The notes: generated from the sequence alone by a model not told the origin. A stretch of 64,000 nucleotides of DNA from an uncultured Methanosarcinales archaeon (GCA_964637115.1 CAZWVL010000007.1:1-64000), one strand, 5' to 3'. Positions 41,878-59,889 are shown, counted from the first letter of the stretch. Program-made: numbers and translations.

Positions 41878-42061
41878 TTCCTCAATACTTATTCTTCAAC
41901 TGCAAACTTTCGGAAAGTTTGATCAAATCGCTCCTTGTCTCGGCTCGAGAAACATTCCATCCGCTGTTTTCTTCGAAAACAGGTTTAATACTTTTCTCTC
42001 GCCTCGACAATGTCGCGAAACTCATGTTTTTGTTTCCTCAATACTTATTCTTCAACTGCAA
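41878..42061. mobile_element. 128-nt hairpin-rich insert (41906-42033) flanked by 28-nt perfect direct repeats
   Basis: TTCCTCAATACTTATTCTTCAACTGCAA at 41878-41905 and 42034-42061; several hairpins between. Confidence 0.7.
41882..42025 (-). CDS. Candidate 47-aa ORF created by the insert; ends with the Rpo2C terminus LQLKNKY
   Basis: MSFATLSRREKSIKPVFEENSGWNVSRAETRSDLIKLSESLQLKNKY*; GAGGA SD upstream. Confidence 0.35.
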   Translation of the reverse strand: MSFATLSRREKSIKPVFEENSGWNVSRAETRSDLIKLSESLQLKNKY

Positions 42062-45572: not shown

Positions 45573-45689
45573 CGGGCCGGACGGGAATGTCAACCATGGG
45601 CAGGAAGCCCATGACTTTTGAACCCGTGACCATCCGCTTTCTCTCTTGCGATAAAAGGCGGATGCTCTACCAGACTGAGCTACCGGCCC
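45573..45689 (-). tRNA. tRNA-Lys(UUU) with two introns (45639-45651 at 37/38; 45587-45616 at 59/60)
   Basis: Acceptor GGGCCGG/CCGGCCC, D-arm GCTC/GAGC, anticodon arm TCCGC-CTTTTAA-GCGGA, T-arm ACGGG-TTCAAAT-CCCGT after removing both inserts; both fold as BHB motifs. Confidence 0.9.
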
Positions 45690-45920
45690 TTGATTGTGCT
45701 TCACTCGAATAGCGATATCCGTATAGTCTGGTATGAATGTGAAAGAATTTTGAGATTTTTGACCCCATTGTGCGCACTACCCTGTAACAATAGAACCTGA
45801 GGGAAAGGAGGGGGTTTATAAAGGTTACGGTTTTTAAGGGCGTTATACATAGGGGGCAGATAATTCTAAACCCTTTTTTGTGCAAAATTGCCGGGGTTGG
45901 CTTGAGGAGTATCTTAGTGC

Positions 45921-47009
45921 TCAAACGTCGGCACGCGTAAATGCTTGATACGCTTCCTCGATAAAATTCTTTATTTTCTTTTTAAATAATTTCCGATCAA
46001 AACGGATAGCGTTTTTTCTGCAATCTTCGGCTGAAAATCTCATTCGTTCAAACTTGAGAACGGCTTTCGCTAATTCTCCTGCTGTTTGCTCATGGAAAAA
46101 ATGTCCTGTTTTGCCTTCAGTAACAGTCTCTAATAGTCCTCCTTTGGCGTATGCGACAACCGGCCTGCCGCAGGCCTGGGTTTCTAAAGGAGTTATACCA
46201 AAATCTTCTTCACCCGGAAATATGAGCGCCTTGCATCTCCTATAATAATCTCTGACTTCATTGTCAGGCAATCTTCCCAAAAACTTGATATTCGCATGAG
46301 CCATGTTTTTCAAACGAGACGCTTCAGGTCCATCTCCGATAATTATTAGCTGTTTTCCAAGGTGATTAAACGCCTTAACGGCAAGGTCTATTCTTTTTTG
46401 AAGCTGAAGTCGAGAAACAATAAGGTAAAAGTCCTCTGCCTTGCCTTTCGGAGTGAAAAAATCAACATCGACAGGTGGGTAAATAACAGTCGAATCCTGG
46501 TGATAGTGTTCTTTGATACTATTTTGGGTATTCTTTGAGTTGGCAATAAAATAATCAACGTTTTTTGTTTGCCGAAGATCCCATTTTTTTAGTCGTGAAA
46601 GCGTCCATTTAACCAGCGGACGGATGACCGGATTCATCCTACTTAGATACGTCTTGGGCATTGTGTATACAAATCTCATAGGGGTATGGCAATAACAAAT
46701 GTGGCAAGTCCGAGGAGGTTTGTTAATGTTCTTAGAAAAAGCTGCTGAACTGCTCAAAATCATATCGAAGTCTGACAAATCCAGACTTTCTGTTGCCCGT
46801 GGATACAGCGGAAGATACACGTAATGGTTTTTTCTTGAAAAAGGGAGCTTTTGAGCGAAACTTGTCCTGATTTTTGCGTCTGGAAAATATTGCTTTTTGT
46901 GGATCAAGGTGAAAATTGGCGCTTGAGGGTAGAGTTCATGGAATATCTCCAAAACTCTTTCACCGCCGCCAAATCCAGTCAGGAAATCATGTACTAGAGC
47001 GAGTTTCAT
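45921..47009 (-). CDS. Family 4 glycosyltransferase (WbaZ-like)
   Basis: GGGERVL, YCHTPMR, EDFGITPLETQACG. Confidence 0.92.
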   Translation of the reverse strand: MKLALVHDFLTGFGGGERVLEIFHELYPQAPIFTLIHKKQYFPDAKIRTSFAQKLPFSRKNHYVYLPLYPRATESLDLSDFDMILSSSAAFSKNINKPPRTCHICYCHTPMRFVYTMPKTYLSRMNPVIRPLVKWTLSRLKKWDLRQTKNVDYFIANSKNTQNSIKEHYHQDSTVIYPPVDVDFFTPKGKAEDFYLIVSRLQLQKRIDLAVKAFNHLGKQLIIIGDGPEASRLKNMAHANIKFLGRLPDNEVRDYYRRCKALIFPGEEDFGITPLETQACGRPVVAYAKGGLLETVTEGKTGHFFHEQTAGELAKAVLKFERMRFSAEDCRKNAIRFDRKLFKKKIKNFIEEAYQAFTRADV

Positions 47010-47039
47010 GTTGGAAGGTGTTTTTGTGTTGTAAATTTT

Positions 47040-48623
47040 TTATTTGGCCAGATCATTTTCTAATTCAACATAATTATAGTAGATTATAAAGGGAATTGCC
47101 ATTACTGTGGCGAATATAAAATGCAGCCCATGATGGAAAAAATAGTCAAAAAGATTATTGATTGAAAAGGCTAAAAAGCTAGCGAAGGATGCCAACACCA
47201 AAGGAATTTTCCTAAGCTTCAAACAGCAAATTATGAATAAAAACATTATAGACAAAAACAAAAGCAAGACAAACACCCCTCCTTCCAACCCGATCTGCAA
47301 ATAAAGATTATGAATATGACTCTTAGAAAACTCCTTACCCAATCCATACATTATTATCATCGATTCATAATTTCCAGGCCCGATTCCAAACCAAAGGTGG
47401 TTTTTAATCATGAGCAAAGCAGTTCGATATGCTTTAAACCTCGCCGAAACGCCAATATCTGCTGCAGAGAATTCCGCCTCCTGAAATGCGCCCGAGGGTG
47501 TTGTTCCGGAAGATGCTTCTTCTGGAACTTGAACTAAACTCACACCACTCGCTTCTATATTCTTTTGCACATCAAAGCCGAAACGATTTGTTAGTGTTCC
47601 ATTTAGAATAAATGGACTAACTGCGATAAACAAAAACAAGAACGCAAAAGCTACCTTCATTCTCATTTGTTTATTGCCTTTTACAATATGATATGCCGAA
47701 AGTAAAAGAAAAACAATACTAAATGACAATATTGAAGCTCTTGAAACTGATGAGAATAATGCGGCAAAGCATATTAGAAAAGCTAATGAGAGAAAAAAAT
47801 ATTTCATCATGTTTTTCTGATGAAAAGACAATACCAGAATGAAAGGCAGGACTAAGTTCAGAAATCCTCCCAAAAGATTAGGTTGATCGAGCGTTCCATA
47901 TCCTCTGATAAAATCATCATTTACGACATACTCAAGTTCAATATTCACAGGATTCGTTATACCAAAAAAATGCTGGTGCATTGCCAAAACTGAATTAAGA
48001 ACTGCAAAAATAATCAGCCACTTAATAGCTCTCTTTACATCAAACTTCCCTAAGAGCATCAACATAGAGATGAGACCAAAAAACTCTATCATGTGTATCA
48101 AAAAGCGGCTATTTGAAGAGAATGTTTTTTCCAAGGCCAAAAAAGGGCTCTGAAAAACCGATAAAAAATAAAAAATGCTAGTCAAAGTCACAAATGTGAG
48201 AAAAAAGATTATTGCTGTAAAAGTTGTCCAGAATAATGGCTTGTCTTTAACTTTGAAATATTTCTTTCTAAATAGAAACGCGATATAAAGACCCAACATA
48301 ACAGGTAAATTGACAATATATGCCAAAAATATACTTTTGTTTAAAATCAGGATATTTTTATTAACGCCAAATACCGCAAAAAAAATAACAATAATCACGC
48401 CATTTTCAACCTTCAAAAGAGTCAGGATGAAAATAAGAATAAGAAAAGGTATGAAAGAATACAAGTTGAGCGGAGACAATATAATAAATATTGAATAAAG
48501 AATGGCGGCAATAAATTGCAGTTCATTCAAATTAATTTTTGTTAGCAATGAATTTATCCAATTTTTTTCATCGCATAAGTTTAAAGGATGAACCTTATTA
48601 TACCCCGCTTGTGAATCTCCCAT
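47040..48623 (-). CDS. O-antigen ligase/polymerase (Wzy_C) family membrane protein
   Basis: Many TM helices; RGYGTLDQPN, SRAS, FGIGPGNY, HIHNLYLQ; start uncertain. Confidence 0.85.
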   Translation of the reverse strand: MGDSQAGYNKVHPLNLCDEKNWINSLLTKINLNELQFIAAILYSIFIILSPLNLYSFIPFLILIFILTLLKVENGVIIVIFFAVFGVNKNILILNKSIFLAYIVNLPVMLGLYIAFLFRKKYFKVKDKPLFWTTFTAIIFFLTFVTLTSIFYFLSVFQSPFLALEKTFSSNSRFLIHMIEFFGLISMLMLLGKFDVKRAIKWLIIFAVLNSVLAMHQHFFGITNPVNIELEYVVNDDFIRGYGTLDQPNLLGGFLNLVLPFILVLSFHQKNMMKYFFLSLAFLICFAALFSSVSRASILSFSIVFLLLSAYHIVKGNKQMRMKVAFAFLFLFIAVSPFILNGTLTNRFGFDVQKNIEASGVSLVQVPEEASSGTTPSGAFQEAEFSAADIGVSARFKAYRTALLMIKNHLWFGIGPGNYESMIIMYGLGKEFSKSHIHNLYLQIGLEGGVFVLLLFLSIMFLFIICCLKLRKIPLVLASFASFLAFSINNLFDYFFHHGLHFIFATVMAIPFIIYYNYVELENDLAK

Positions 48624-48667
48624 ATTTTTAAATAGAAAAATGTAAGCTTAAATATTTATCGGGGCAC

Positions 48668-49888
48668 TCATCTGATCAATGCCTTCGCCTTGGAACAATA
48701 CACTATAAACAAAAGAATCTGCGTGCCTACTGTGGCAATAGCAGCACCAATGAAGCTATATCGGGGAATCAGCAACAGATTCAATACAATGCCTACCAGA
48801 GCGCCGAAGCCCGCTGCCTTCACCACGAATTTTTGCTCATTGACTGCAATAACGAAATAGCTGACGATTGTTGAAAAAGAAAGAACGAAGAAAGACCAAA
48901 CGAGTATTTGCAGTACGGGAACGGATTTGTCAAATTCTGGTCCGTATAATGTTTTAATGAGCAAGGGCGAAGCGATAAAAATTGCTATGCTTACCAATCC
49001 TCCAAGAAGAAGCGACGCCCAAAAAATCTTTTTAAAAACCTTTTTCAGCGCAATCTGGCGCTGATGCAGGGAAGTAAATCTGGGCAAAACCGCTTTAACC
49101 AGCACCAGGGGAATAATGCCCAAAGCAAGTACAATCTGATTTGGTGCGCTAAACAAGCCAACAGCCTCCTCGGTTTTCATAATTCCAAGCAAAATCGTTG
49201 CTATCCTTTCACTAACTAGCGTGAAAGCAACGATAAAGAAAAAAGGCAGACCCTCCCTTAAAAAGATCTTCCACTTCTCGATATTAACCAAGAGCTTCGT
49301 CTTGCCGAATCTTCTCAAATAATAAATTGTGACAAAAAGACCAATCAGGGAGGCGAGCAAATAGAAAAAGAATATTTTTTCCACACTAATGGTGCCCAAG
49401 ATCGTGCCAAAGATAGCAATCATTGCAATTATGAAAAAGAGTGATTTCTCGACGATTTTTGCAATAGCCTCAAACTTTAACTGCTCATAAGCCCTGAATA
49501 TCACTTTCAAACTTTCATCGATCATATCTATGCTAACAAAAATACCAGCCAGGACGATTGCCAGAATGCTCTTTTTGAGAATAAACCCGACTATGATCAT
49601 GAGAACTATTACTCCTGCAGCCAGGAAAAATTTTAACGAAAGAATGTTTTCCAGATATTCTCTTTTCAGCTTTTTATTCTGTGCAATGTTTTTCAGATAG
49701 GCAAAAGGAATGCCAAAATCTATCAGCATGCCAAACAGCAAAGCGTATGCGAAAGTGAAAGAGTACAAGCCGAATTTTTCAACACCCAACGCTCTTGCGA
49801 AGAGAACCGTGAGTATGAACATCAACACCTTTGCAAAACCTTCTGCAAAGAGCATGTATGCTGAGTTTCTTATAATGCGCTTAAGCAT
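48668..49888 (-). CDS. Wzx-type oligosaccharide flippase
   Basis: ARALGVEKFGLYSF, AVGLFSA, LNLLLIPRYSFIGAAIAT. Confidence 0.88.
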   Translation of the reverse strand: MLKRIIRNSAYMLFAEGFAKVLMFILTVLFARALGVEKFGLYSFTFAYALLFGMLIDFGIPFAYLKNIAQNKKLKREYLENILSLKFFLAAGVIVLMIIVGFILKKSILAIVLAGIFVSIDMIDESLKVIFRAYEQLKFEAIAKIVEKSLFFIIAMIAIFGTILGTISVEKIFFFYLLASLIGLFVTIYYLRRFGKTKLLVNIEKWKIFLREGLPFFFIVAFTLVSERIATILLGIMKTEEAVGLFSAPNQIVLALGIIPLVLVKAVLPRFTSLHQRQIALKKVFKKIFWASLLLGGLVSIAIFIASPLLIKTLYGPEFDKSVPVLQILVWSFFVLSFSTIVSYFVIAVNEQKFVVKAAGFGALVGIVLNLLLIPRYSFIGAAIATVGTQILLFIVYCSKAKALIR

Positions 49889-51011
49889 AGAATTCCTTGT
49901 AAACTCCCAATGTTTCTAGAGCTGCTTTCTGCCAGCTAAATCTTTTTGCTTGAATTAATCCCTTTTCTATCATTTGTTTTCTTAATTTATCATTTGTCAG
50001 GACACTCTTCATGGCACTGGCCAATTCGTTGACATCATTAGGATTTACCCTTATTGCAGCGTCTCCTGCAACTTCAGGTAATGAGGAAACATTGCTTGTG
50101 ATAACCGGACAGCCGCAAGCCATTGCTTCCAGAACCGGGAGCCCAAAGCCCTCATGCAAGCTGGGAAAAACAAAAGCTTCTGCACCATTATAATAGAATT
50201 TCACCTCAGAATGATCAACGGGTCCGATAAAGCTCACATCGCCTTGCAAATTGAATTTTTCAATTGAATCGAAGACCTCGTCTGAACGCCAGCCTTTGCT
50301 GCCCGCAATAATGAATTTTTCTCGAATCTTATGCTCTTTTTTCAGCTTTGCGTATGCCTCAATTATTCTCGTGACATTTTTTCTCGGCTCTATTGTACCA
50401 ACAAAAAAGATAAAAGGAAAATCGATTTTCCTTTTTTTTAGAAAAACGTCAACCGTTTTCCTATTAAGAGGGTTGAAAAGATCACTAGCAGCTTCATAAA
50501 TAACAGAAATTTGCTTCGGGGGGATTTTAAAATACTTAATCATGCCTTCTTTTACCGATTCAGAAACAGCAATTATTTTTTTGGCCCGTTTCACAGAAAT
50601 TTTCGTGAGTAAATTGTGATAAAGATTTCTTTTCGAATCACGAGTTTCTTGAGATTTTATAGGCACTAAATCATGCATCGTTACAATTGCCTTCACAGGA
50701 CAAAAAAGAGGAAGAATATTCATGCCTGAATGAAAAAGATCAATCTTATATCTCAACAGCAAGATGGGAAGAATCAGTTGCTCCCAAAATACTCTTATTT
50801 GAGGATTCACCGTATTAATTCTTGATTGAATAAAATGGAAATTTTTCTTGTGCACGAAATGTTTGAAAGTATTATTTACGAAAATAAAATACTCATTCTG
50901 CGAATCTATTTTCGCAAGTTCATCAATCAAATTATAAAGATACGTACTGACGCCTGTGTTTCGAGGCGACTTACCCAATAGGAGCAATTGTGCGTTAATT
51001 CCAATGCGCAT
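49881..51011 (-). CDS. Family 4 glycosyltransferase (mannosyltransferase-like)
   Basis: [27 protein letters not shown]. Confidence 0.92.
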
Positions 51012-51083
51012 TATTCATCAAGATAAAAGGTGTTTATTTAAACTTTTGTTTAACTAATAATTGCAATCCTATGCGGAGACAGA

Positions 51084-52427
51084 CTATTTTCTAAAAATAA
51101 TCATTGGAATAGTTTTAAGAATTATTTTAATATCAAAAGGTAATGACCAGTTTTCTATATAATAAAGGTCGTATCTAATTCTTTCCTTCAGGGAAGTGTT
51201 TCCTCGGTAACCGTTGACTGCTGCCCAACCAGTCAATCCTGCCTTAATATTCAACCTTTCGAGGTATTTGGGGACTTTTGTTTCAAAATCTCTGACAAAA
51301 ACAGGTCGCTCTGGTCTCGGTCCAACAACGCTCAGGTCTCCATTTAATACGTTAACAAGTTGGGGTAATTCATCTAGATATGTTTTCCTCATGAAACTTC
51401 CCAGTCGCGTGCACTTTTGTCTGTCGTGACTCCACATAGCACCCGTTTTGCCTTCAGCTTTGTCGACCATGGATCTGAATTTGTATAAAGTGAAAAATTT
51501 GTTCCCTTCTGTCACTCTTTTTTGCTTGTATATTATTGGGCCTTGTGAATCAAGTTTAATTGCGATTGCCAAAAGAATAAGAAAGGGAGAGACAATAATG
51601 AGCAATAAGCTTGCTACAACAACATCAAAAGCACGCTTTAAAACAAGGTTAAATCCTTTCAAAGGGGTTTTAACTGTTAGCAGTGGAATTCCTTTTATTG
51701 TGTTGAGGTCGATTTTTGTGATGATGTCAAGCACGTCAGGAACTATTTTATAGGTTATTTTTTTGCCGCAGGCGGAGATTATCTGCAGGATTTTTTCGTG
51801 ATCATTGGGACCAAAAGCGAGTACCAGTTCGTCTATTTTCCTATTATCAATTATGCTTTTTAATTCGTTCAAATCTTTTATTGATGAATGCTTGCTATTT
51901 ATGAAATCAACAATTTTATATTGCGGAAGATCTCCTATTTTCTCATGTATTTTTCTAGCAAAGACTTTATCCCCGATGATAAGCACTCGTTGAACGCCAA
52001 TCCCGCGCATGAATAAATATTTGTTCACTGCATTGACCGCTTTACTCGAGATAAAAACAACTAAAATAGAGAGAATAAAAGCAATAACAACAACCAATCT
52101 CGAATAAGATTCTGCTCTATACAGAAAGGTGGTGGATAAAAGGATCAAAAAGCACAGACTCAGGGCCTTTACCACATTAAAAAAATCGATATTCGCGGAT
52201 TCATAAACATTCATGAGCTTAAAGACAACCACGCTGACAACCGTAACTACTATCATCGCCCTTAAATAAATTGAAAATGCAGGGATTTCGCTCGTCAATG
52301 GAATTAAAGGGGTATAGAATCTGATAAAGTACGCCAGCGTAAAAGCAAGATTTATGCTTAGAATATCTACTATAAAAAGAAGAAATTTTGAAATCCATTC
52401 GTAATCCTTTTGCCACCTGTATTTCAT
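51084..52427 (-). CDS. Polyprenyl-phosphate sugar phosphotransferase (WcaJ/WbaP family)
   Basis: 4 N-terminal TM, CoA-binding-like domain, KRAFD, KFRSM, DELPQL, VGPRPERP, GLTGWA, DLYYIENWS. Confidence 0.92.
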   Translation of the reverse strand: MKYRWQKDYEWISKFLLFIVDILSINLAFTLAYFIRFYTPLIPLTSEIPAFSIYLRAMIVVTVVSVVVFKLMNVYESANIDFFNVVKALSLCFLILLSTTFLYRAESYSRLVVVIAFILSILVVFISSKAVNAVNKYLFMRGIGVQRVLIIGDKVFARKIHEKIGDLPQYKIVDFINSKHSSIKDLNELKSIIDNRKIDELVLAFGPNDHEKILQIISACGKKITYKIVPDVLDIITKIDLNTIKGIPLLTVKTPLKGFNLVLKRAFDVVVASLLLIIVSPFLILLAIAIKLDSQGPIIYKQKRVTEGNKFFTLYKFRSMVDKAEGKTGAMWSHDRQKCTRLGSFMRKTYLDELPQLVNVLNGDLSVVGPRPERPVFVRDFETKVPKYLERLNIKAGLTGWAAVNGYRGNTSLKERIRYDLYYIENWSLPFDIKIILKTIPMIIFRK

Positions 52428-52566
52428 TTTGTGTAGCTACCAAATGCTTTCGAAAGCCTTATTCTACATAAATGTTGGCTAAGCGCAGAATCCGCTTCTT
52501 TGTTTTAAAGGTATTGGTAGTTAAGAGAAGAAAAAATTAAAAGTTAAAATAAAAAAAATAAAAAAA

Positions 52567-53151
52567 TTATAGACCTTTGCCGCACATTTCCTTCAAACAG
52601 GCCTCCCCATTCTGTTCGCAGCCCTGTATGCACGCGGCGTTACCTGGGTTAATAATGTTGCAGCTGGTTATGCAATGTCCTTTAAAAATATTACAAAAGT
52701 GTGCACAGTCTCCAGGAGTGTCGCAAATGACATCTTTTGTAACGGTGCATATCAGTTTGGAGAAGTGTCCTGGGTCCTCTTCACATGTGCGCGTAGCTAT
52801 GCTTGGAAGAACATACCAAGTAACACCAGTCACCTTGCAAGGCAAAGGTGGAGCTACAGCTCCACACTTACCTCTTGCTTTCGAGGCCCATGTTGTAATA
52901 GCAGAATCACAAAGTGAGTTCATAATGGCATTCGTATTTAAGTTCCCATGGGCTGCACAATTGCTAGGACTTGTGAAAGACCTGTCCTTTATTACTGTCA
53001 AGCCGGGGTCTGCACTTACGAAGCACGGGCCTAGTACGGAATTCGAATTAGGCGGAGGAGCTTGTTGCGCCATAGATGCTATAGCAAGAACAAGCGCAAA
53101 AATAGTTGCTATAACAGAAATTGATAATCCTATTCTACCTTTTGTATCCAT
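52567..53151 (-). CDS. Cys-rich exported protein, paralog 1
   Basis: MDTKGRIG leader + TM helix; EEDPGHFSKLIC; C-terminal CxxxC pairs; GGTGA SD. Confidence 0.8.
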   Translation of the reverse strand: MDTKGRIGLSISVIATIFALVLAIASMAQQAPPPNSNSVLGPCFVSADPGLTVIKDRSFTSPSNCAAHGNLNTNAIMNSLCDSAITTWASKARGKCGAVAPPLPCKVTGVTWYVLPSIATRTCEEDPGHFSKLICTVTKDVICDTPGDCAHFCNIFKGHCITSCNIINPGNAACIQGCEQNGEACLKEMCGKGL

Positions 53152-53202
53152 TATTATCACCTTTTTTTACGATAAAAAATTAAAAGTTAAAAAAGAAAAA
53201 AA

Positions 53203-53805
53203 TTATGGGTCTGCGCAGGCCATCTTGCATCGCATTTCCTCGGCTACACAGGCTTGTTTGCAGGCTGCATTGTCCGTACCACAAAATTCATCGCAGGACG
53301 CTTTAAAAACGGTTGTGCACGTCTTTTGACAGTCTCCAGGAGGTGCGCAAATTGCGTTAGCTTTAACTGTACATATCAGTTTGCTGAAGTGCCCTGGATC
53401 CTCTTCGCAAGAGCGTACTTGCGAACCTTCTGCAAGCCTCCATGAAACTGCACTCATCTTACAAGGCGAAAACGGTTTAGTTTCGCCGATAAACGGCGGA
53501 GGCAGTACAATCGCCGCGCACTTATTTTTTGTTAGAGCGAACCAATCTGTAAGAGCACGCTCGCAAAGTCTATTCATAATTGCATTCGTATTCAAGTTTC
53601 CATGCGCTGCACAAGTACTAGGAGTTGTAAAACTTTGATCTCTTATTACTGTTTGATCTGCGGTCACTACTACAAAACAACCTTTTAGAAACGTCTCCGC
53701 GAAGTCAGGCGGGGTTACAATAGTTGCCGATGCCATCGCCATAACAAGCGAAAGCGCAGTTGCGATAACGGCAATAGCCAATCCTATTCGACCTTTAGTA
53801 TCCAT
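53203..53805 (-). CDS. Cys-rich exported protein, paralog 2
   Basis: Same leader and motifs (CAAHGNLNTNAIMN, EEDPGHFSKLICTV); GGTGA SD. Confidence 0.8.
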   Translation of the reverse strand: MDTKGRIGLAIAVIATALSLVMAMASATIVTPPDFAETFLKGCFVVVTADQTVIRDQSFTTPSTCAAHGNLNTNAIMNRLCERALTDWFALTKNKCAAIVLPPPFIGETKPFSPCKMSAVSWRLAEGSQVRSCEEDPGHFSKLICTVKANAICAPPGDCQKTCTTVFKASCDEFCGTDNAACKQACVAEEMRCKMACADP

Positions 53806-53927
53806 TATTATCACCTTTTTCTTTTTTGGAACTGAAAAGTAGTTATTAATAATCTCAGTATTTAAACTTTTCTGTTTTACATTCGTACCAAAACATTTAA
53901 ATATAAGAAGATTATCGTTATTCACAG

Positions 53928-54446
53928 GTGGTTAAAATCGGCTTAAGAAAGAACTTGGTTATCGGAGGGCTTCTGGCAATTCTTGGGTGCTCGGAAAAAA
54001 AGGAACCATACACTCCTCCCACGCCGGAAAAACCAGCAAATCAGGAAAAAAGCACCGAAAAAACTCAGCCTCCTCTACAACCAAGCAGACTTGAAAAGTA
54101 TGAACAACCTACACAAACACGTCAAGCTTATGAGATTGTTTATTTTTATGACACGAATAAGATAGAAAAGCATGGCGAAGGCGTTGAGGGTGATCCAGAA
54201 CTCTCCCTACTCTGCCATAACTACGGCTTTTCTCTGTTCACTATTGCTTCTAATGCTGAGCTTGCCAAAAAGGAATTTAAACTAGCCGATAAGCCAGTGA
54301 TCATGATTTGCAAAGATATTATCGAGCTTGAACGATTTTTAGTAACAGACAGGCAGCAACTTGCTAGCCGCCTTGAGCAGGAGTTACGGTACCATAGTGG
54401 AAAAGGTACGCCTCCAGCAGGATGCAAGGATTATCAGAAGAAATAA
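53928..54446 (+). CDS. Lipoprotein, hypothetical
   Basis: GTG start, lipobox LAILGC, Pro/Lys/Glu-rich linker. Confidence 0.65.
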   Translation: MVKIGLRKNLVIGGLLAILGCSEKKEPYTPPTPEKPANQEKSTEKTQPPLQPSRLEKYEQPTQTRQAYEIVYFYDTNKIEKHGEGVEGDPELSLLCHNYGFSLFTIASNAELAKKEFKLADKPVIMICKDIIELERFLVTDRQQLASRLEQELRYHSGKGTPPAGCKDYQKK

Positions 54447-54449
54447 CTG

Positions 54450-56129
54450 TTAAATCTCTTTTTTAACCTCATAAATGAAATATCCTGTTACATTGCTCTG
54501 CACTTCCTTAAGATATACACAATCGAGAGCTTTTTGTGAAATAAGAAGTTTAGGCTTGTACCGCTCAACCCAGTCCAACCCCTGCTCGCACGAAGGTGAC
54601 TCAAAAAATCTGTCCGCTTCCCCTGATAATTCCGCACCACCCATCCAGTGAACAACAACAGAATTATTAGTTATGGGAATGGCGGAACTGAACCTCGGAT
54701 TAGCCAGTATCCTCTGGCCGGAATAATGAATTTTCAGCCAATCGAGCATCTCGTAATCCTTGTCGTCCACAATATAATCAAAAAGCGGGGGGAAATTGGC
54801 ACGAAGTTGGAAGCCAAAAATCAATGCGAGGAGTACGCCTGCGATTAATATAAAGACGTACTTCTTCTTTATTTTATGCCTGAGAATTCCAAGAAGATGA
54901 CTAAAACCTATACTGCCGATGAAAATAGCGAACAAAAGGACCAGATATATCAGTCTCTCCGGCCTAATTAGGTAAGAATATTTGATTATGGAACTAATTA
55001 AAAAACCTACAAGTGAAAAAATGAAAAAGAATGATAAAATTTTTTGATGCTTCTCCCCAAGTATAATATACAATCCAAACAGTCCACAAATAGCGAGTGG
55101 AATTCCAATGAGAAAATAATTTATGTTGTGGTACGGAAACTCTAATCGCCAGAAATTGGACAAAATTGTTTCTTTAATACCGCCCTTCCAGAACCAGCTC
55201 AAGAAGACTGCAGCAGATACGGCCAAGAGTCCAATAAAAAAAGCGCAGAAAACCTTCCAGTCCTTTTTCATGTTATAAACAACATAAGGCAAGGAAACGA
55301 CAAGAATGTACGCAGCAGCGCTCCCATGCAGCGTGAATGCGATGAAGATAAAAATACCCGCAAGAATCAGATAATTCGCACTTCTTTCAGTAAGCCATTT
55401 GTGCATGAGAAGAAGAAAGAGGAAGCAGAGTATGAGTGAAACTGTGAAAGGGACTGCCAGAATCAATCCCAGTATCAAAGAATTGCCCGGGATAGTGGCA
55501 GACAGAACCATGGCCAAAAGACTCGTCCAGAAATTCTTAGTCAGTTCATAAATAAACACAAAAATCACGAGGGCAGTGATAATACCGAACAATGCTGGCA
55601 GGAACTTGTAATCGAGCAACGGATCCATCTTAGTTAGCAGGAAAATGCTGGCAAGAAGCGCAGGAAATCCGGTCTTTGCATCGCAGTCATAAATATCATT
55701 ATATGGATTTATACAGAGCTTACCAGTTTCTGTTATCTTATACGCATGGTTCATGTAAAAGTATTCGGTGACGTGCAAAGGAAACCTATATGTGAAATGA
55801 GGAGAATAAATCAGAAAAAATACGACAATAACACCACTGAGAAGAAAAATGATCTTTTTAACCTCGAATTTTGGCACATCAACTAGCTTGTATCTTTTTG
55901 AAACAAAAAGGGACATAATTGTCAGCAGGGATCCTGCGAACAATGCTAATTTTACCGTAAAGCCATTGATTACATAAAAATTAAGCAACAATCCAGTTAA
56001 AACCAAAAAAGAAATAGAAAGCCCCAGCCCACAAACCACCCGTTCAAGAAAATCCTGCTTTTTGAAGAAGAAAAAAGTCAGCAAGTATCCAGTTACTAAT
56101 AATATAACAATCCACAATAAACCCGGCAT
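54450..56129 (-). CDS. Multi-pass membrane protein, probable GT-C-fold glycosyltransferase
   Basis: Over 12 TM segments; soluble C-terminal domain (EMLDWLK..ILANP..). Confidence 0.65.
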   Translation of the reverse strand: MPGLLWIVILLVTGYLLTFFFFKKQDFLERVVCGLGLSISFLVLTGLLLNFYVINGFTVKLALFAGSLLTIMSLFVSKRYKLVDVPKFEVKKIIFLLSGVIVVFFLIYSPHFTYRFPLHVTEYFYMNHAYKITETGKLCINPYNDIYDCDAKTGFPALLASIFLLTKMDPLLDYKFLPALFGIITALVIFVFIYELTKNFWTSLLAMVLSATIPGNSLILGLILAVPFTVSLILCFLFLLLMHKWLTERSANYLILAGIFIFIAFTLHGSAAAYILVVSLPYVVYNMKKDWKVFCAFFIGLLAVSAAVFLSWFWKGGIKETILSNFWRLEFPYHNINYFLIGIPLAICGLFGLYIILGEKHQKILSFFFIFSLVGFLISSIIKYSYLIRPERLIYLVLLFAIFIGSIGFSHLLGILRHKIKKKYVFILIAGVLLALIFGFQLRANFPPLFDYIVDDKDYEMLDWLKIHYSGQRILANPRFSSAIPITNNSVVVHWMGGAELSGEADRFFESPSCEQGLDWVERYKPKLLISQKALDCVYLKEVQSNVTGYFIYEVKKEI

Positions 56130-56208
56130 AGTGAGCGAAAAAGTTGCCGGTGCTTTAAAAGTTTCTATTAAGCGCTAGGCTGAATTTTATAAAATTAAGA
56201 GAAAAAAA

Positions 56209-56796
56209 TCAGGGGTCTATACACGTGTCAATGCATGCTCCCATATCAGACACGCACTTCTGCCTGCAAGGCGCGTTATCATCGCCACACGTTGACAAGC
56301 AAATTTTCTTGATACGCTCACAGTCTTTCACACAGTCACGCATATGCGAACATATCGGCGTATCTTTGGTTGTGCATGTGAGTTTGACTATGTGCCCTGG
56401 ATCAACCACGTCGCACTTGCGCGTATCAGCCAGACCACTCCTAATAAAAATGGTTGCCCATGGCGAATTGATTGTGCACGCTCTTTCTCCGGAAACAGTC
56501 ACGCATGATTTCTTTGCCTGGCTTATCCAAGATTCCTGCGTTTCCTTACATAGCGTATTCAATCTCGCATCCGTCTGCAACTGAGCTGCAGAAGGACAGG
56601 GACCAGCAACCGTAACGTCCTTTACGACAGTAATATCCGTTATTACAGCATTTGCTGCTTCACATTTTGCAATTGAAGAATCGGGCGCGGGAGCTGCCAC
56701 AGCTGTTTCCGCACCTATGCTTGCAAAGGCAACAAACAGCGAAATAATCGTTGCTATAAGAGCGATTCCAAGTCCTATCCTCGCTTTTACGTCCAT
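56209..56796 (-). CDS. Cys-rich exported protein, paralog 3 (diverged)
   Basis: MDVKARIGLGIALIAT leader; VVDPGHIVKLTC; CVKDC..CLSTC..CRQKC..CIDTC; GAGGTGA SD. Confidence 0.8.
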   Translation of the reverse strand: MDVKARIGLGIALIATIISLFVAFASIGAETAVAAPAPDSSIAKCEAANAVITDITVVKDVTVAGPCPSAAQLQTDARLNTLCKETQESWISQAKKSCVTVSGERACTINSPWATIFIRSGLADTRKCDVVDPGHIVKLTCTTKDTPICSHMRDCVKDCERIKKICLSTCGDDNAPCRQKCVSDMGACIDTCIDP

Positions 56797-56918
56797 CAGA
56801 ATCACCTCTTTATTGTACCCTTAAGTGCGCGCCTATTTAAAAAATTTTCCATTATACTGCTGGCACATCGCCCTTGAACACGCGAAGCTTTTTATTCAAA
56901 AGAAATTCCTGACCTACC

Positions 56919-57587
56919 ATGAGCACAAACAAAAAACACCCATTTTCCCAACACCATCTCTATCTGCTAATTCTCAGCATTTTTTTATTCTGTTTTTTTG
57001 CCAAAATAACTGAAGATGTCATGAATAATGGGTTCTTTACTAAATTTGATTCGTTGGTGAGTACGAAAATAGTTTTGCTCTGGAATCCTGTGCTTACAAA
57101 AATAATGGTGTTCATCACAAATATCGCCAGCACTCCTAGTTTGTTCATTCTTTCACTCACGTTTTTGGGCGTGCTCGCATACAAGAGAAAATGGCGTGAT
57201 TCCTTGCTCTTGATATGTGCACTGGCTGGCACACGGATATTGGAGCTGCTTACAAAATTCATGGTCCACAGAGCGCGACCGGAGAATGCATTGATTGAAG
57301 TTTCTAACTACAGTTTTCCAAGCGGGCATGCAGCAATGTCAATCGTTTTCTTTTCACTGCTTATCTATTCATTTAAGGACGACATCAAAAATAAAATGTT
57401 CAAGAATTTTTTTATAACCGCTAATGTATTCTTATTCATATTGATAGGATTCAGCAGGATTTACCTTAATGTCCACTGGTTGAGCGACGTGCTGGCAGGA
57501 TTTGCCCTCGGGTCATTCTGGCTCACCTTAATGATCCTGACTTTTCAATCAGTAATTGCTCTCGCAAAAAAGACTTTCCCTTCCTGA
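56919..57587 (+). CDS. PAP2-family phosphatase (polyprenyl-diphosphate phosphatase-like)
   Basis: KFMVHRARP, SFPSGHA, SRIYLNVHWLSDV. Confidence 0.9.
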   Translation: MSTNKKHPFSQHHLYLLILSIFLFCFFAKITEDVMNNGFFTKFDSLVSTKIVLLWNPVLTKIMVFITNIASTPSLFILSLTFLGVLAYKRKWRDSLLLICALAGTRILELLTKFMVHRARPENALIEVSNYSFPSGHAAMSIVFFSLLIYSFKDDIKNKMFKNFFITANVFLFILIGFSRIYLNVHWLSDVLAGFALGSFWLTLMILTFQSVIALAKKTFPS

Positions 57588-57645
57588 AAAACTGGAAAAC
57601 GGCTCCTTCTTGTTTGCCGGTCTAAATCTTGAAATACGCCGAGGC
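57568..57645. repeat. Repeat R copy 2, including a 9-nt tRNA-Asp 3'-end remnant (57637-57645)
   Basis: 50/63 ungapped identities (hand count) between 57583-57645 and 59175-59237. Confidence 0.8.
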
Positions 57646-58148
57646 TACTTCAAAAGCTCCTTAGCCTTTTGCAGATAGAACAGGTCCCTTTTAACTATAA
57701 ACTTGCCATTATACTCATCGGGCCTTTCGTTCTTAAGCAGCTCTATTGCTTTATCAATTGACACCCAAACAAGTTTAGCCCCTTCTTCAATTTCTTCCTG
57801 AGTAAATTCCGGCTTGCCTTCCTTGACAACCTCTGCAAGAAAACAATGCGACGTTTGAACCATATCCTCGTGCGTGCGGTGCTCAATAATCTCACCCAGT
57901 TCACCAATCACACGAACAGAACAACCAGTTTCCTCCTTGATTTCCCTGGCAAGCGCATCAGGAATGCTCTCGCCGGAATCAACACCGCCACCTGGCAGCT
58001 TATGGTATTTGTGTTTGCTAATATGAAGCAAAGCGATAAGACCCTTATTCATCATAACTGCCCTGGCAGCAGTTCTAGGAATATGCTTAGAATCCTCTTT
58101 TGGCTTCACACCAACATCAACATCACTGAGTTCAAGAATGGTTTTCAT
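57645..58148 (-). CDS. NUDIX hydrolase
   Basis: LPGGGVDSGESIPDALAREIKEETG. Confidence 0.92.
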   Translation of the reverse strand: MKTILELSDVDVGVKPKEDSKHIPRTAARAVMMNKGLIALLHISKHKYHKLPGGGVDSGESIPDALAREIKEETGCSVRVIGELGEIIEHRTHEDMVQTSHCFLAEVVKEGKPEFTQEEIEEGAKLVWVSIDKAIELLKNERPDEYNGKFIVKRDLFYLQKAKELLK

Positions 58149-58154
58149 AAAATT

Positions 58155-58248
58155 AAAACGCCGGGGCCGGGATTACTTGCGAAGTGCGCTTCGCAAGTTG
58201 CTCGGAAATCCAAAGGATTTCCGACATGAACCCGAGGGTTCAAATCCC
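58155..58248 (-). repeat. Duplicated tRNA-Asp 3' end (att-like) expanded into a four-way-junction palindrome
   Basis: 58155-58174 identical to 59225-59244; 58227-58234 identical to 59245-59252; 52-nt double-hairpin insert between. Confidence 0.85.
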
Positions 58249-58387
58249 CTTCACAAAATAGTGCAAGAGCTTCGCTCGAAACATACGCCGTTGTGTTTAC
58301 TGTTCTGGCTTTTTAATCTTTCTGGATGAGCCGTGCATTACAATTTCATTACATATCTCAAAAAGCGGGCAAACACCCTAAGAAAAG

Positions 58388-58774
58388 GTGAAGAGTTTTG
58401 CGATTAAGTTTGGCAATATTTATAAAGAAAATCATTTTTATGAGTTTTCAATGGGACGTCTCGTAAAAACTCAGGATTGGGAGAGCCGAGCGATTGTAAG
58501 TTTTTTGGGCGGATACAGCATAACACAACAAGCTTTTAAGGCAGACTTTGAAACAAAGCGAGGAAAATTTTACGTGCTTATTTGGGCAGATCTAGACCGA
58601 CATGAAATGGTTATTAATGATCGTTATAATATAGAAGCGTTGCAAAAGGCGTGCAGTCAAAATGCGTTTGTACTGATTTCTGAATTGTTCCCGAAGGGAA
58701 GCAAAATAATAACTTCGTATAATGAGATTAATGATGTTTTGGCAAAAATTGCAGATATCATAAAAGAAGAATGA
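58388..58774 (+). CDS. Hypothetical protein (AT-rich, cassette cargo)
   Basis: 128 aa, GTG start; lies between the two tRNA-Asp end copies. Confidence 0.6.
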   Translation: MKSFAIKFGNIYKENHFYEFSMGRLVKTQDWESRAIVSFLGGYSITQQAFKADFETKRGKFYVLIWADLDRHEMVINDRYNIEALQKACSQNAFVLISELFPKGSKIITSYNEINDVLAKIADIIKEE

Positions 58775-59025
58775 TTGCTCATACAACCTTTAGGAACAAT
58801 TCCGGATTGCTTGCCAGGCTTATCATGGATATGCGATATTAACCTAATAACCTCTAGTTTGTTGAGGGGTGTTCTACAGGTCCAATTTTTACTGTTCTTA
58901 CCAAGCTTAGTTTTTTCTTAAAAATTTGCGCGAACCGGTACAAATCCTGAAAAGAATTTTACTTTCATTTTATTTATAAATGAAAGTTGTTGCCGGTTCA
59001 AATCCTGTTTTGCAAGGATAGATTT

Positions 59026-59139
59026 ATGAATTTCGCTCACAACTTGCTTTCCGAAATTGCCAGAATGGTGCTGAGAGGCGCTATTCCGGCAAAAACAATG
59101 CAAGAAAGTGATTTGGCTAAAATTTTGAGAAAAAAATGA
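59026..59139 (+). CDS. Possible 37-aa microprotein
   Basis: MNFAHNLLSEIARMVLRGAIPAKTMQESDLAKILRKK; AGGA upstream. Confidence 0.3.
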   Translation: MNFAHNLLSEIARMVLRGAIPAKTMQESDLAKILRKK

Positions 59140-59157
59140 CAAGAAAAACAAGCTCAG

Positions 59158-59228
59158 AAAAGACTTTTTTCTTACCTGAACGGCCGGCAAACAGCTCCTT
59201 TTCGATTGCCAGTCTAAATCCTGAAAAA
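59158..59228. repeat. Repeat R copy 1, immediately 3' of tRNA-Asp
   Basis: Homologous to 57568-57636. Confidence 0.8.
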
Positions 59229-59301
59229 CGCCGGGGCCGGGATTTGAACCCGGGTTGCAAGCGCGACAGGCTCGCGTGCTAGACCACTGCACTACCCCGG
59301 C
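59229..59301 (-). tRNA. tRNA-Asp(GUC), intronless, no encoded CCA
   Basis: GCCGGGG/CCCCGGC acceptor, G73, CGAGC-CTGTCGC-GCTTG anticodon arm, CCGGG-TTCAAAT-CCCGG T-arm. Confidence 0.95.
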
Positions 59302-59371: not shown

Positions 59372-59830
59372 TTACTCTGCGAACTCGTCTTCCAGATAAG
59401 CGAATCTGCAGGACGGGTCTGGCTCGACATCATCGGCAGGAACACGCACGGGCTGTTTGCTGGTTAGTCTCTTCCTCTCCACTGACTGCGGGTCATTCAA
59501 ATAATTAACAATTCTTCTCATAGCGGTTTCTGAACCGCCCTCCACAGAAACCTGGTCTCCATTGCCTAACATGACCTTCGCGTGGTAGCCATACCTGCCG
59601 CCATAATTTATCGTCAATGTGGCCTCTGCAAGCGTACCAACATTCGTTGCTTTCACGCTCAACACGCTGCCCTTAGTAGATTCTTCAACAATGCAGCCTA
59701 AATCATCTGACTTTTCCATAATGCCCAAAAATGCAGCAATGCTTCCGCACGAAACGTTATTTTTCGGCTTTAACAAGCGCCCTTCTTTTGAGAAATCGTA
59801 CGTTACAGTATCCAACCCAGTTATGCTCAT
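59372..59830 (-). CDS. Hypothetical protein
   Basis: 152 aa from MSITGL; AGGTGA SD. Confidence 0.7.
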   Translation of the reverse strand: MSITGLDTVTYDFSKEGRLLKPKNNVSCGSIAAFLGIMEKSDDLGCIVEESTKGSVLSVKATNVGTLAEATLTINYGGRYGYHAKVMLGNGDQVSVEGGSETAMRRIVNYLNDPQSVERKRLTSKQPVRVPADDVEPDPSCRFAYLEDEFAE

Positions 59831-59889
59831 CTTCACTCACCTAATACCGTCGATAAAAAGTTATTATTTAAAAGCTTTATGACAGGAAA

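Follow-up and report, generated by a model that had tools for sequence, protein, structure and literature searches.

A contig of an uncultured archaeon (GCA_964637115.1, CAZWVL010000007.1:1-64000; the window, as we call this whole stretch of 64,000 nucleotides) carries an intact tRNA-Asp(GTC) gene (ARAGORN; Rfam RF00005, 65 bits) behind which pieces of the tRNA 3' end recur at gene boundaries, and the question arises of how these genes came to lie there. The host is a small Woesearchaeota-type archaeon of the genus Candidatus Woesearchaeota with a genome of 1.27 Mb (98% complete, GC content 0.43). Directly 3' of tRNA-Asp we found 13.3 kb of foreign DNA, which comprises at least four separate pieces and includes a surface-sugar gene cluster. 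The pieces are named unit 1 (943 bp), module B (127 nt), NUDIX unit (513 bp) and unit 3 (11.7 kb), and the junctions J0 (end of tRNA-Asp), J1 (end of unit 1), J2 (copy B of the tRNA end), J3 (copy C) and J4 (copy D, the distal one). The insertions and their boundaries are described below, together with exact empty sites in relatives and a genome in which no recognisable recombinase is encoded. In our judgement the array probably arose by site-specific integration, one element after another, with the tRNA end or an earlier copy of it as target and with later loss of the integrase ("gene capture"). Genomes are denoted by G numbers, G000 being the host, and contigs by C numbers; the conclusions do not draw on the unpublished genomes G010, G023, G054 and G064.

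The interval was compared with the congeners. Wherever both tRNA-Asp and tRNA-Lys(UUU) could be read in a congener, they lie next to each other and share the strand; their spacing is 13.5 kb in the window versus 0.15-2 kb in the congeners. In G001 and G006, about 20 nt lead from tRNA-Asp to a conserved leader of ~140 nt with a TATA box, located 5' of tRNA-Lys; in G005 and G014 a module of 126-197 nt, in which the tRNA end is present once more, is all that lies between tRNA-Asp and this leader. The whole Asp-Lys insert of the window is missing in these four genomes, and other inserts of 0.08-1.9 kb occupy the tRNA-Asp spot in G002, G003, G004, G007, G008, G009, G011 and G012. The block of leader and tRNA-Lys lies 20-130 nt 3' of tRNA-Asp or its module in G001, G006, G005, G014, G009 and G003, and similarity of the window to the congeners' leader restarts at ~45832, 52 nt past copy D. 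For the 12.3 kb from copy B to copy D, including the NUDIX gene and the glycan locus, no DNA homologue was found in the 14 congeners searched, except for PAP2, which has a counterpart of 65% identity at another place in G005. The insert is GC-poor (unit 3, 0.389; its polysaccharide genes, 0.371; unit 1, 0.366; genome, 0.43) and in its tetranucleotide distance to the genome as a whole, unit 3 ranks among the top 3% of same-size windows drawn at random. Because of the spacing and synteny in congeners, the lack of DNA homologues, the low GC content and the atypical tetranucleotides, the whole interval is inserted DNA relative to the congeners.

An earlier note on this DNA had described three stacked units of about 1.0, 0.5 and 11.7 kb with copies of the tRNA-Asp 3' end at gene boundaries. 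Comparison among relatives and base composition, two of the analyses it had suggested, agree with an insertion of several pieces with tRNA 3'-end copies at the junctions, and all three copies (B, C and D) are present. The stacking was borne out, the count was not: the "1.0-kb unit" is made up of a 943-bp islet and a 127-nt module, giving four units. The motif CGGCG occurs 11 times on the minus strand between 45.5 and 59.4 kb, and its four non-coding occurrences lie exactly on J0, J1, J2 and J3, each followed by T. Direct repeats of the 3' part of the tRNA, as left by tyrosine integrases, were found, although shorter than usual: 16 nt between J0 and J2, 5-6 nt at J1, 8 of 9 positions at J3 and 13 of 17 at J4. 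Coordinates are given in Table 1.

Table 1. Features of the interval between tRNA-Asp and tRNA-Lys (window positions)
Feature	Position	Strand	Description	Evidence
tRNA-Asp(GTC)	59229..59301	-	3' end ...CCCCGGCG, junction J0; CGGCG at 59233..59229	ARAGORN, Rfam
Unit 1	58286..59228	-	943-bp islet without integrase; left arm 58854-59228; right arm 58286-58393, ending ...AACACAACGGCG (J1)	
Unit 1 cargo open reading frame (ORF), 128 aa	58388-58774	+	no Pfam match	
Module B	58159..58285	-	small hairpin; inverted T-arm copy GGGGATTTGAACCC; TC; GGGTTCA; two perfect 10-bp hairpins; 16-nt tRNA-Asp end (J2)	
NUDIX unit, 513 bp	57645..58158	-	10 nt, then 167-aa NUDIX hydrolase gene 58148..57645; stop overlaps copy C	PF00293, E=1.9e-16
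Copy C (J3) and ~70-80 nt of arm	57566..57645	-	start of left-arm homology; overlaps last PAP2 codons on the other strand	BLAST to C2:153390-153470, 80%, E=4e-12
Unit 3 body	45901..57565	-	PAP2, exported proteins, membrane protein, polysaccharide cluster	Pfam
PAP2	56919-57587	+		
Three unknown exported proteins and 559-aa membrane protein	52567-56805			
Bac_transf	51084-52427		initiating sugar transferase	
GT4	49881-51011			
Flippase	48668-49888			
Wzy_C	47040-48623		Wzy-like polymerase	
GT4	45921-47009			
Copy D, CCAACCCCGGCAATTTT	45884..45900	-	degenerate J4; 13/17 match; 20 nt past GT4 stop	
Distal anchor	45573..45832	-	leader with TATA box 45690-45832; tRNA-Lys(UUU) with two introns 45689..45573; then rpoH, rpoB	sequence reading

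Unit 1 has a sister element at a second tRNA of the same genome. Window positions 58854-59253 are 91% identical to C2:153374-153771 (the left arm itself corresponds to C2:153399-153771) and 58282-58393, with the right arm, are 96% identical to C2:154911-155022. On C2 both arms flank a different cargo directly 3' of tRNA-Ser(GGA), forming an element of 1.6 kb. The empty site is preserved in G005, G007 and G013, where the tRNA end is joined to the start of a sugar dehydrogenase gene (...CGGCG/TATG, the slash marking the boundary), and in the host 1,614 bp separate CGGCG from TATG, with the insert ending ...CAACGGCG/TATG. The C2 element is therefore absent, with exact boundaries, from at least three congeners, and its direct repeat is 5-7 bp long. 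Unit 1 ends in the same way, ...AACACAACGGCG, at 58286; its left end is TTTTTCAGGATTTAGAC, and the predicted circle junction is the right end ...AACACAACGGCG joined to TTTTTCAGGATTTAGAC. Since the sequence past unit 1 (TATGTTTCGAGC...) aligns with the sequence past tRNA-Asp in G005 (TACTTTTCGGGC...), unit 1 is a 943-bp islet that was put between tRNA-Asp and an already present module. At the tRNA-Ser(GGA) site of G005, G013 and G007, the start codon of the dehydrogenase gene, which is of the PQQ type, lies one base past the tRNA discriminator (...CGGCG-T-ATG; the corresponding position in G000 is C2:155020), which leaves this gene with practically no upstream sequence that is not tRNA.

The left arm extends beyond these two sites. 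It was recovered as a block conserved at the nucleotide level directly 3' of tRNA-Ser(TGA) in G006, tRNA-Arg(CCG) in G083, tRNA-Tyr in G045 and tRNA-Ser(CGA) in G019, and the arm is thereby seen behind at least five different tRNAs. On contig C61 of G019, which belongs to another genus, a fragmented tyrosine-integrase gene (PF00589, E=2.7e-15) lies 2.4-4.7 kb from the arm; the far boundary and direct repeats of this element were looked for and not found. From these sequences we read the arm as the putative conserved att-proximal end of a family of integrative elements, of which unit 1, the C2 element and the start of unit 3 would be decayed members. The arm holds two small ORFs on the plus strand (59026-59139 and 59136 onward), which overlap at ATGA and of which the second crosses tRNA-Asp on the opposite strand. 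We asked whether the first, which in G083 runs into the tRNA, might be what is left of the N-terminus of a "suicidal" integrase (SSV type), and rejected this. The conserved letters are in another frame in G019, indicating conservation at the nucleotide and not the protein level, and none of 77 family genomes yielded a long ORF that shares this N-terminus. The arm is thus probably a non-coding site or RNA, to judge by its pattern of conservation. The cargo ORF and the right end of unit 1 are not integrase-like. A viral source for arm or module was also considered and rejected: the four matches in IMG/VR lay within coding regions and were due to chance, and a pattern made from the module had no match.

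The second boundary with an arm is copy C. As the earlier note had claimed, this copy (GCCTCGGCG, 57645..57637; 8 of 9 positions match) starts on the stop codon of the NUDIX gene (TAG, of which it takes in the final base), and the case is stronger than was claimed: the ~80 nt past it are ~80% identical to the sequence 3' of tRNA-Asp and of tRNA-Ser(GGA) (BLAST E=4e-12 and 1e-12; 71-73 of 103 aligned positions), so that a third member of the arm family starts here. The T variant in copy C is the tRNA-Asp 3' end of the congener G006 (CCCGGCCTCGGCG). The NUDIX gene was tried as a travelling cassette and rejected, since its single protein homologue (in 1 of 76 family genomes) has neither a tRNA neighbour nor tRNA-end copies.

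Past copy C follows the large unit. Its Bac_transf, two GT4, flippase and Wzy_C genes are a Wzx/Wzy-type polysaccharide set. That the array feeds variation of surface glycans, as had been proposed, holds insofar as the glycan locus of this genome lies here; a DNA homologue of it is present in none of the 14 congeners. Boundaries within unit 3 were sought and rejected: the polysaccharide half is more foreign in composition, but neither CGGCG nor an arm is present at the intergenic spacers.

Copy D closes the array. With up to four mismatches allowed, its 17-mer gave 22 matches in 2.54 million strand-positions, corresponding to P ~9e-4 per 100 nt, and the copy lies next to the independently defined restart of synteny. 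The flank of copy D aligned weakly with the module flank of G005 (top 2.6% of shuffles), and not significantly with that of G014. The similarity of copy D (13/17) and of J1 (5-6 nt) is weak enough to suit a quite unlikely alternative, namely that the interval is simply a variable site, prone to recombination and enclosed by two conserved tRNA genes, filled by homologous swapping through the flanks or by illegitimate swapping, with copies C and D and CAACGGCG partly coincidental. The flanks, i.e. the gene upstream of tRNA-Asp on one side and the leader, tRNA-Lys and rpoH on the other, are conserved across the genus and could anchor such recombination, and glycan islands are classic replacement islands (works listed in 10.1101/2020.12.28.424599). 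Against it speak the exact empty sites of the unit-1 family at a second tRNA, the ~80 nt of arm homology beside copy C (E ~1e-12), the position of all four non-coding CGGCG motifs exactly on junctions, the rarity of copy D (P ~1e-3) beside an independent breakpoint and the occurrence of the same arm behind at least five different tRNAs.

Module B differs from the other units. Its copy B is a 16-mer (AATCCCGGCCCCGGCG, 58174..58159) identical to the last 16 nt of tRNA-Asp, of which no third copy exists in the 1.27-Mb genome, and it stops 10 nt short of the NUDIX start codon, as the earlier note had it. The same note had described copy B as 28 nt, exact apart from an insert; the 16-nt end stands, but upstream of the 52-nt insert the sequence reads AACCC-TC-GGGTTCA, with a 2-nt insertion, and this part looks less like a simple copy of 28 nt than like two incomplete T-arms, one inverted and one direct. 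Nor is copy B the far boundary of the first unit. The module is also found directly 3' of tRNA-Asp in G005, G014, G002 and G004, with the same architecture and compensatory changes in the stems, and where the tRNA T-loop is TTCGAAT in place of TTCAAAT, the matching change is seen in both T-arm pieces of the module. Since it is kept at tRNA-Asp in other congeners, copy B is part of an older insertion from a separate family of small elements. The module is not at tRNA-Asp in G001, G006, G007, G008, G011 and G012. A sister module lies 3' of tRNA-Pro(TGG) on C21 and in G006, with a decayed distal repeat in the G006 copy. Module B folds with z = -5.3, and all modules have z = -4 to -6 versus shuffled controls.

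This conservation raised the question of whether copy B belongs to a functional RNA gene and is not a scar: the 3' half of a split tRNA or of a tRNA with a T-loop intron, or a structured RNA matching the neighbouring tRNA. Introns in the T-loop do occur in this genome (tRNA-Lys, at 59/60), and the module is kept in five genomes with strong folding, compensatory stems and T-loop A/G changes coordinated with each tRNA. We consider a functional RNA very improbable all the same, since no 5' half (GCCGGGG...) is present upstream of copy B and tRNA-Asp is already complete, which led us to reject the split or intron-bearing tRNA; moreover, no bulge-helix-bulge joining the exon pieces of copy B could be drawn by manual pairing, unlike for the T-loop intron of tRNA-Lys, Rfam gave no match and no tRNA at module B, the module is missing at tRNA-Asp in six congeners and the distal repeat has decayed in the tRNA-Pro copy of G006. 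A casposon or another transposon with long target-site duplications was likewise rejected, there being no Cas1 and, by reading, no terminal inverted repeats at the ends of unit 1 or the module; the one casposon feature present is the length of the 16-nt repeat of module B, compared with target duplications of 14-16 bp.

Structured inserts followed by a copy of the tRNA's own end were also seen in G000 at tRNA-Arg(GCG) (C2:83135-83303), tRNA-Val(GAC) (C3:137518-137666), tRNA-Pro(TGG) (C21:3-277) and tRNA-Ser(CGA) (C3:144220-144422). There, an exact or near-exact copy of the last 15-17 nt lies within 77-201 nt downstream; the inserts at Arg, Val and Ser(CGA) are shorter, the Ser(CGA) case being a probable one, and in the Arg and Pro inserts the inverted T-arm piece fits the local tRNA. 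Hairpin-rich inserts of ~130-200 nt were further noticed in the window at 41878-42061 and on G000 contigs at C8:45600-45830 and C9:49950-50060, bounded by direct repeats of 28 and 32 nt, which copy either the end of a protein gene or its start. Those on C8 and C9 share a hairpin of the CGGAAAT...ATTTCCG type with module B. These inserts at protein genes look like a family resembling miniature inverted-repeat transposable elements with unusually long target repeats.

How could such an array have been built? Tandem integration at archaeal tRNA genes, loss of the integrase after integration and "gene capture" are established (PMC8371274), and additive islands seeded by tRNAs have been modelled (10.1101/2020.12.28.424599). 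In the sequence of events that we propose, the ancestral order would have been tRNA-Asp, a short spacer, the leader and tRNA-Lys, and tRNA-Asp would have seeded an additive island of at least four independent insertions, each at the tRNA 3' end or at an earlier copy of it. The 127-nt structured module would have entered first; as it is common to four congeners, it is taken as the oldest insertion. At the tRNA-end copy of this module, the NUDIX unit and the 11.7-kb unit with its glycan and surface-protein genes would have been added next, and the 943-bp islet would have come last, at tRNA-Asp itself, its arms being still 91-96% identical to the sister at tRNA-Ser(GGA). The recombining enzyme would be an integrase on transient integrative elements, acting at a short core of the tRNA end (CGGCG, then T), and loss of the integrase and of most element genes would leave cargo without an integrase between repeated att remnants. 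This integrase would be of the tyrosine type.

Several observations weigh against integration followed by integrase loss. An integrase was found neither in the element nor in the genome: PF00589 and PF16795 (tyrosine recombinase and SSV-type integrase) had no match in the 98%-complete genome, serine recombinases and Cas1 were not detected there either, and a tblastn search of the host genome with the genus's 425-aa integrase, encoded beside tRNA-Thr(CGT) in G006 and G009, returned nothing. Two scans of JGI metagenome contigs for strain variants or circular junctions gave no match, i.e. neither a circular junction nor a conspecific empty site. The repeat common to the two ends of unit 1 is just 5-7 bp, compared with the usual 40-50 bp of archaeal integrase att sites, and copy D is degenerate. 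The arm family also adjoins a tRNA-Tyr that ends ...GGGGA, so that no single core sequence suits every member. The NUDIX unit and unit 3 were never seen apart, no exact empty site was seen for either separately, and their separateness thus depends on copy C and its arm. Finally, module B may stem from a different mechanism, because its family, with direct repeats of 15-32 nt, also occurs at the ends of protein genes. A scan of genome contigs for the junction sequences returned one already known congener and nothing else.

Tyrosine recombinases as such are common in the family (43 of 61 genomes). Three of the five genus members in the recombinase search had a match, mainly of a ~430-aa type, and none resembled the short type (~270-300 aa, E ~1e-40), which we take to be XerA. 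As the searches of G000 turned up no tyrosine recombinase whatever its type, XerA is missing there, too. The 425-aa tyrosine integrase of G006 (L030 9399-10676) and G009 (L031) has a C-terminal zinc ribbon and is located 370 nt past tRNA-Thr(CGT) in a syntenic position; no direct repeats were found around it in these two genomes. In G000 (C23, near 6380) the flank of tRNA-Thr is common for 17 nt and then diverges into a contig of 39% GC.

The earlier note had suggested searching the whole genome for a tyrosine recombinase acting in trans, and none was found in the 98%-complete genome. A working platform for cassette capture, in which the tRNA-Asp end serves as an attI-like site and cassettes without integrase are shuffled in trans by a recombinase of an unrecognised family or from an unbinned replicon, is an unlikely explanation, for which there are nevertheless arguments. 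Many tiny units of a single gene or of toxin-antitoxin size occur at this one site across the genus, with the short common motif CGGCG and then T, and the arm identity of 91-96% at two tRNAs means recent movement with no recombinase in the genome. Cargo at tRNA-Asp of the congeners includes a GNAT gene preceded by a small ORF (G004 and G008), an APH-family kinase (G012) and unknown ORFs, and G006 has MazEF inside a related arm-bearing islet at tRNA-Ser(TGA); GNAT, APH-family kinase and MazEF are cargo usual for mobile islets, which counts in favour of serial integration as well. The GNAT cassette has differing array positions in G004 and G008. On the other side, a candidate for the recombinase is missing, cassette ends save that of module B have no fold resembling attC, several distal junctions of congeners lack the motif, and neither excised circles nor reshuffled cassette orders were seen for the array; loss of the integrase after integration is simpler and already documented (PMC8371274). 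A broader version, in which tRNA ends would be the acceptor sites of a cassette-exchange system with a 5-8-bp core, served by a recombinase of no recognised family or from an unseen replicon, and the hairpin-rich four-way-junction modules with their copies of the local tRNA's T-arm would be its folded recombination sites, we hold to be distinctly unlikely; it would cover the GNAT and MazEF units, the kinase, the NUDIX gene and even the whole glycan locus. Serial integration with subsequent integrase loss stays our preferred explanation.

Archaeal integration at tRNA genes and gene capture were reportedly treated by She et al. in 2001 and 2004 and by Krupovic et al. in 2010, the 2001 work being cited in PMC8371274, and tandem accretion of integrative and conjugative elements (ICEs) and cis-mobilizable elements (CIMEs) in Streptococcus reportedly by Pavlovic et al. 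in 2004. The array shares with archaeal tandem integration and gene capture foreign DNA behind a tRNA, partial tRNA 3' copies at boundaries, stacked units and loss of the integrase, which fixes the cargo (PMC8371274). It differs in the size of its units (0.13-1.6 kb and one of 11.7 kb), in repeats of 5-16 nt versus ~40-50 bp, in that no virus or plasmid backbone genes are left and in that no integrase is encoded in the genome. The tycheposons of Prochlorococcus (Hackl et al., 10.1101/2020.12.28.424599) are alike in the tRNA seed, the transient vector elements, the scattered partial tRNAs and the piling up of degenerated elements; most of their islands are without an element at a given time, and variation peaks next to the tRNA. 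They are bacterial and have identified tyrosine recombinases specific to each tRNA, whereas here one insertion is at a distal tRNA-end copy and not at the tRNA itself. The CIMEs of Streptococcus and ICE accretion (PMC5812530, PMC5704250) offer att-flanked elements without integrase that persist at a gene 3' end and can join in tandem with other elements and be mobilised in cis or in trans; they differ in being bacterial and linked to conjugation and in having long att sites.

The label "integron-like", which the earlier note had given to the array, does not hold, because there is neither IntI nor attC. Rows of small, mostly single-gene cassettes at one site, a short conserved junction motif and cargo of the toxin-antitoxin type in congeners are in common with integrons and clusters of attC sites lacking integron integrases (CALINs), which have been reported from archaeal genomes, too (Ghaly et al., PMC9668308). 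Beside the array there is no integrase of the IntI type, no attI and no Pc, PF00589 had 0 matches in the genome, and the imperfect palindrome of attC has no counterpart at J1, J3 or J4, module B alone being palindromic. The repeats here are derived from a tRNA, and the cassettes have their own promoters.

The array is flanked by conserved genes. Upstream of tRNA-Asp lie a protein of 154 aa of no Pfam family and a radical SAM protein; the former (59372-59836, minus strand), directly upstream of the tRNA, is syntenic in congeners, with 69% DNA identity in G005. At the distal side, tRNA-Lys(UUU) (45573-45689, minus strand) was missed by ARAGORN and scored 23.9 bits, below threshold, with Rfam; it has an intron of ~13-14 nt at 37/38 in the anticodon loop and one of 30 nt at 59/60 in the T-loop. 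The T-loop intron is kept, with co-varying stems, in all congeners read. The non-coding leader before it (45690-45832, minus strand; ~140 nt from the TATA box to tRNA-Lys) is strongly conserved in the genus, with the core GGGTAGTGCGCACAATGGGG, and matches no Rfam family; it may represent a small RNA that has so far escaped recognition, or else belong to the pre-tRNA.

In sum, the array is a tRNA-seeded genomic island of an already known kind and conceptually ordinary. Its interest lies in the host: though very small, host-dependent and lacking a recombinase, this archaeal genome still acquires accessory genes, among them a full pathway for surface polysaccharide, which likely shapes cell-cell contact. 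Enzyme and vector could be sought with concrete sequences, namely the non-coding arm, which is conserved, and the exact empty sites, and across the genus the tRNA-anchored landing pad has been reused repeatedly.

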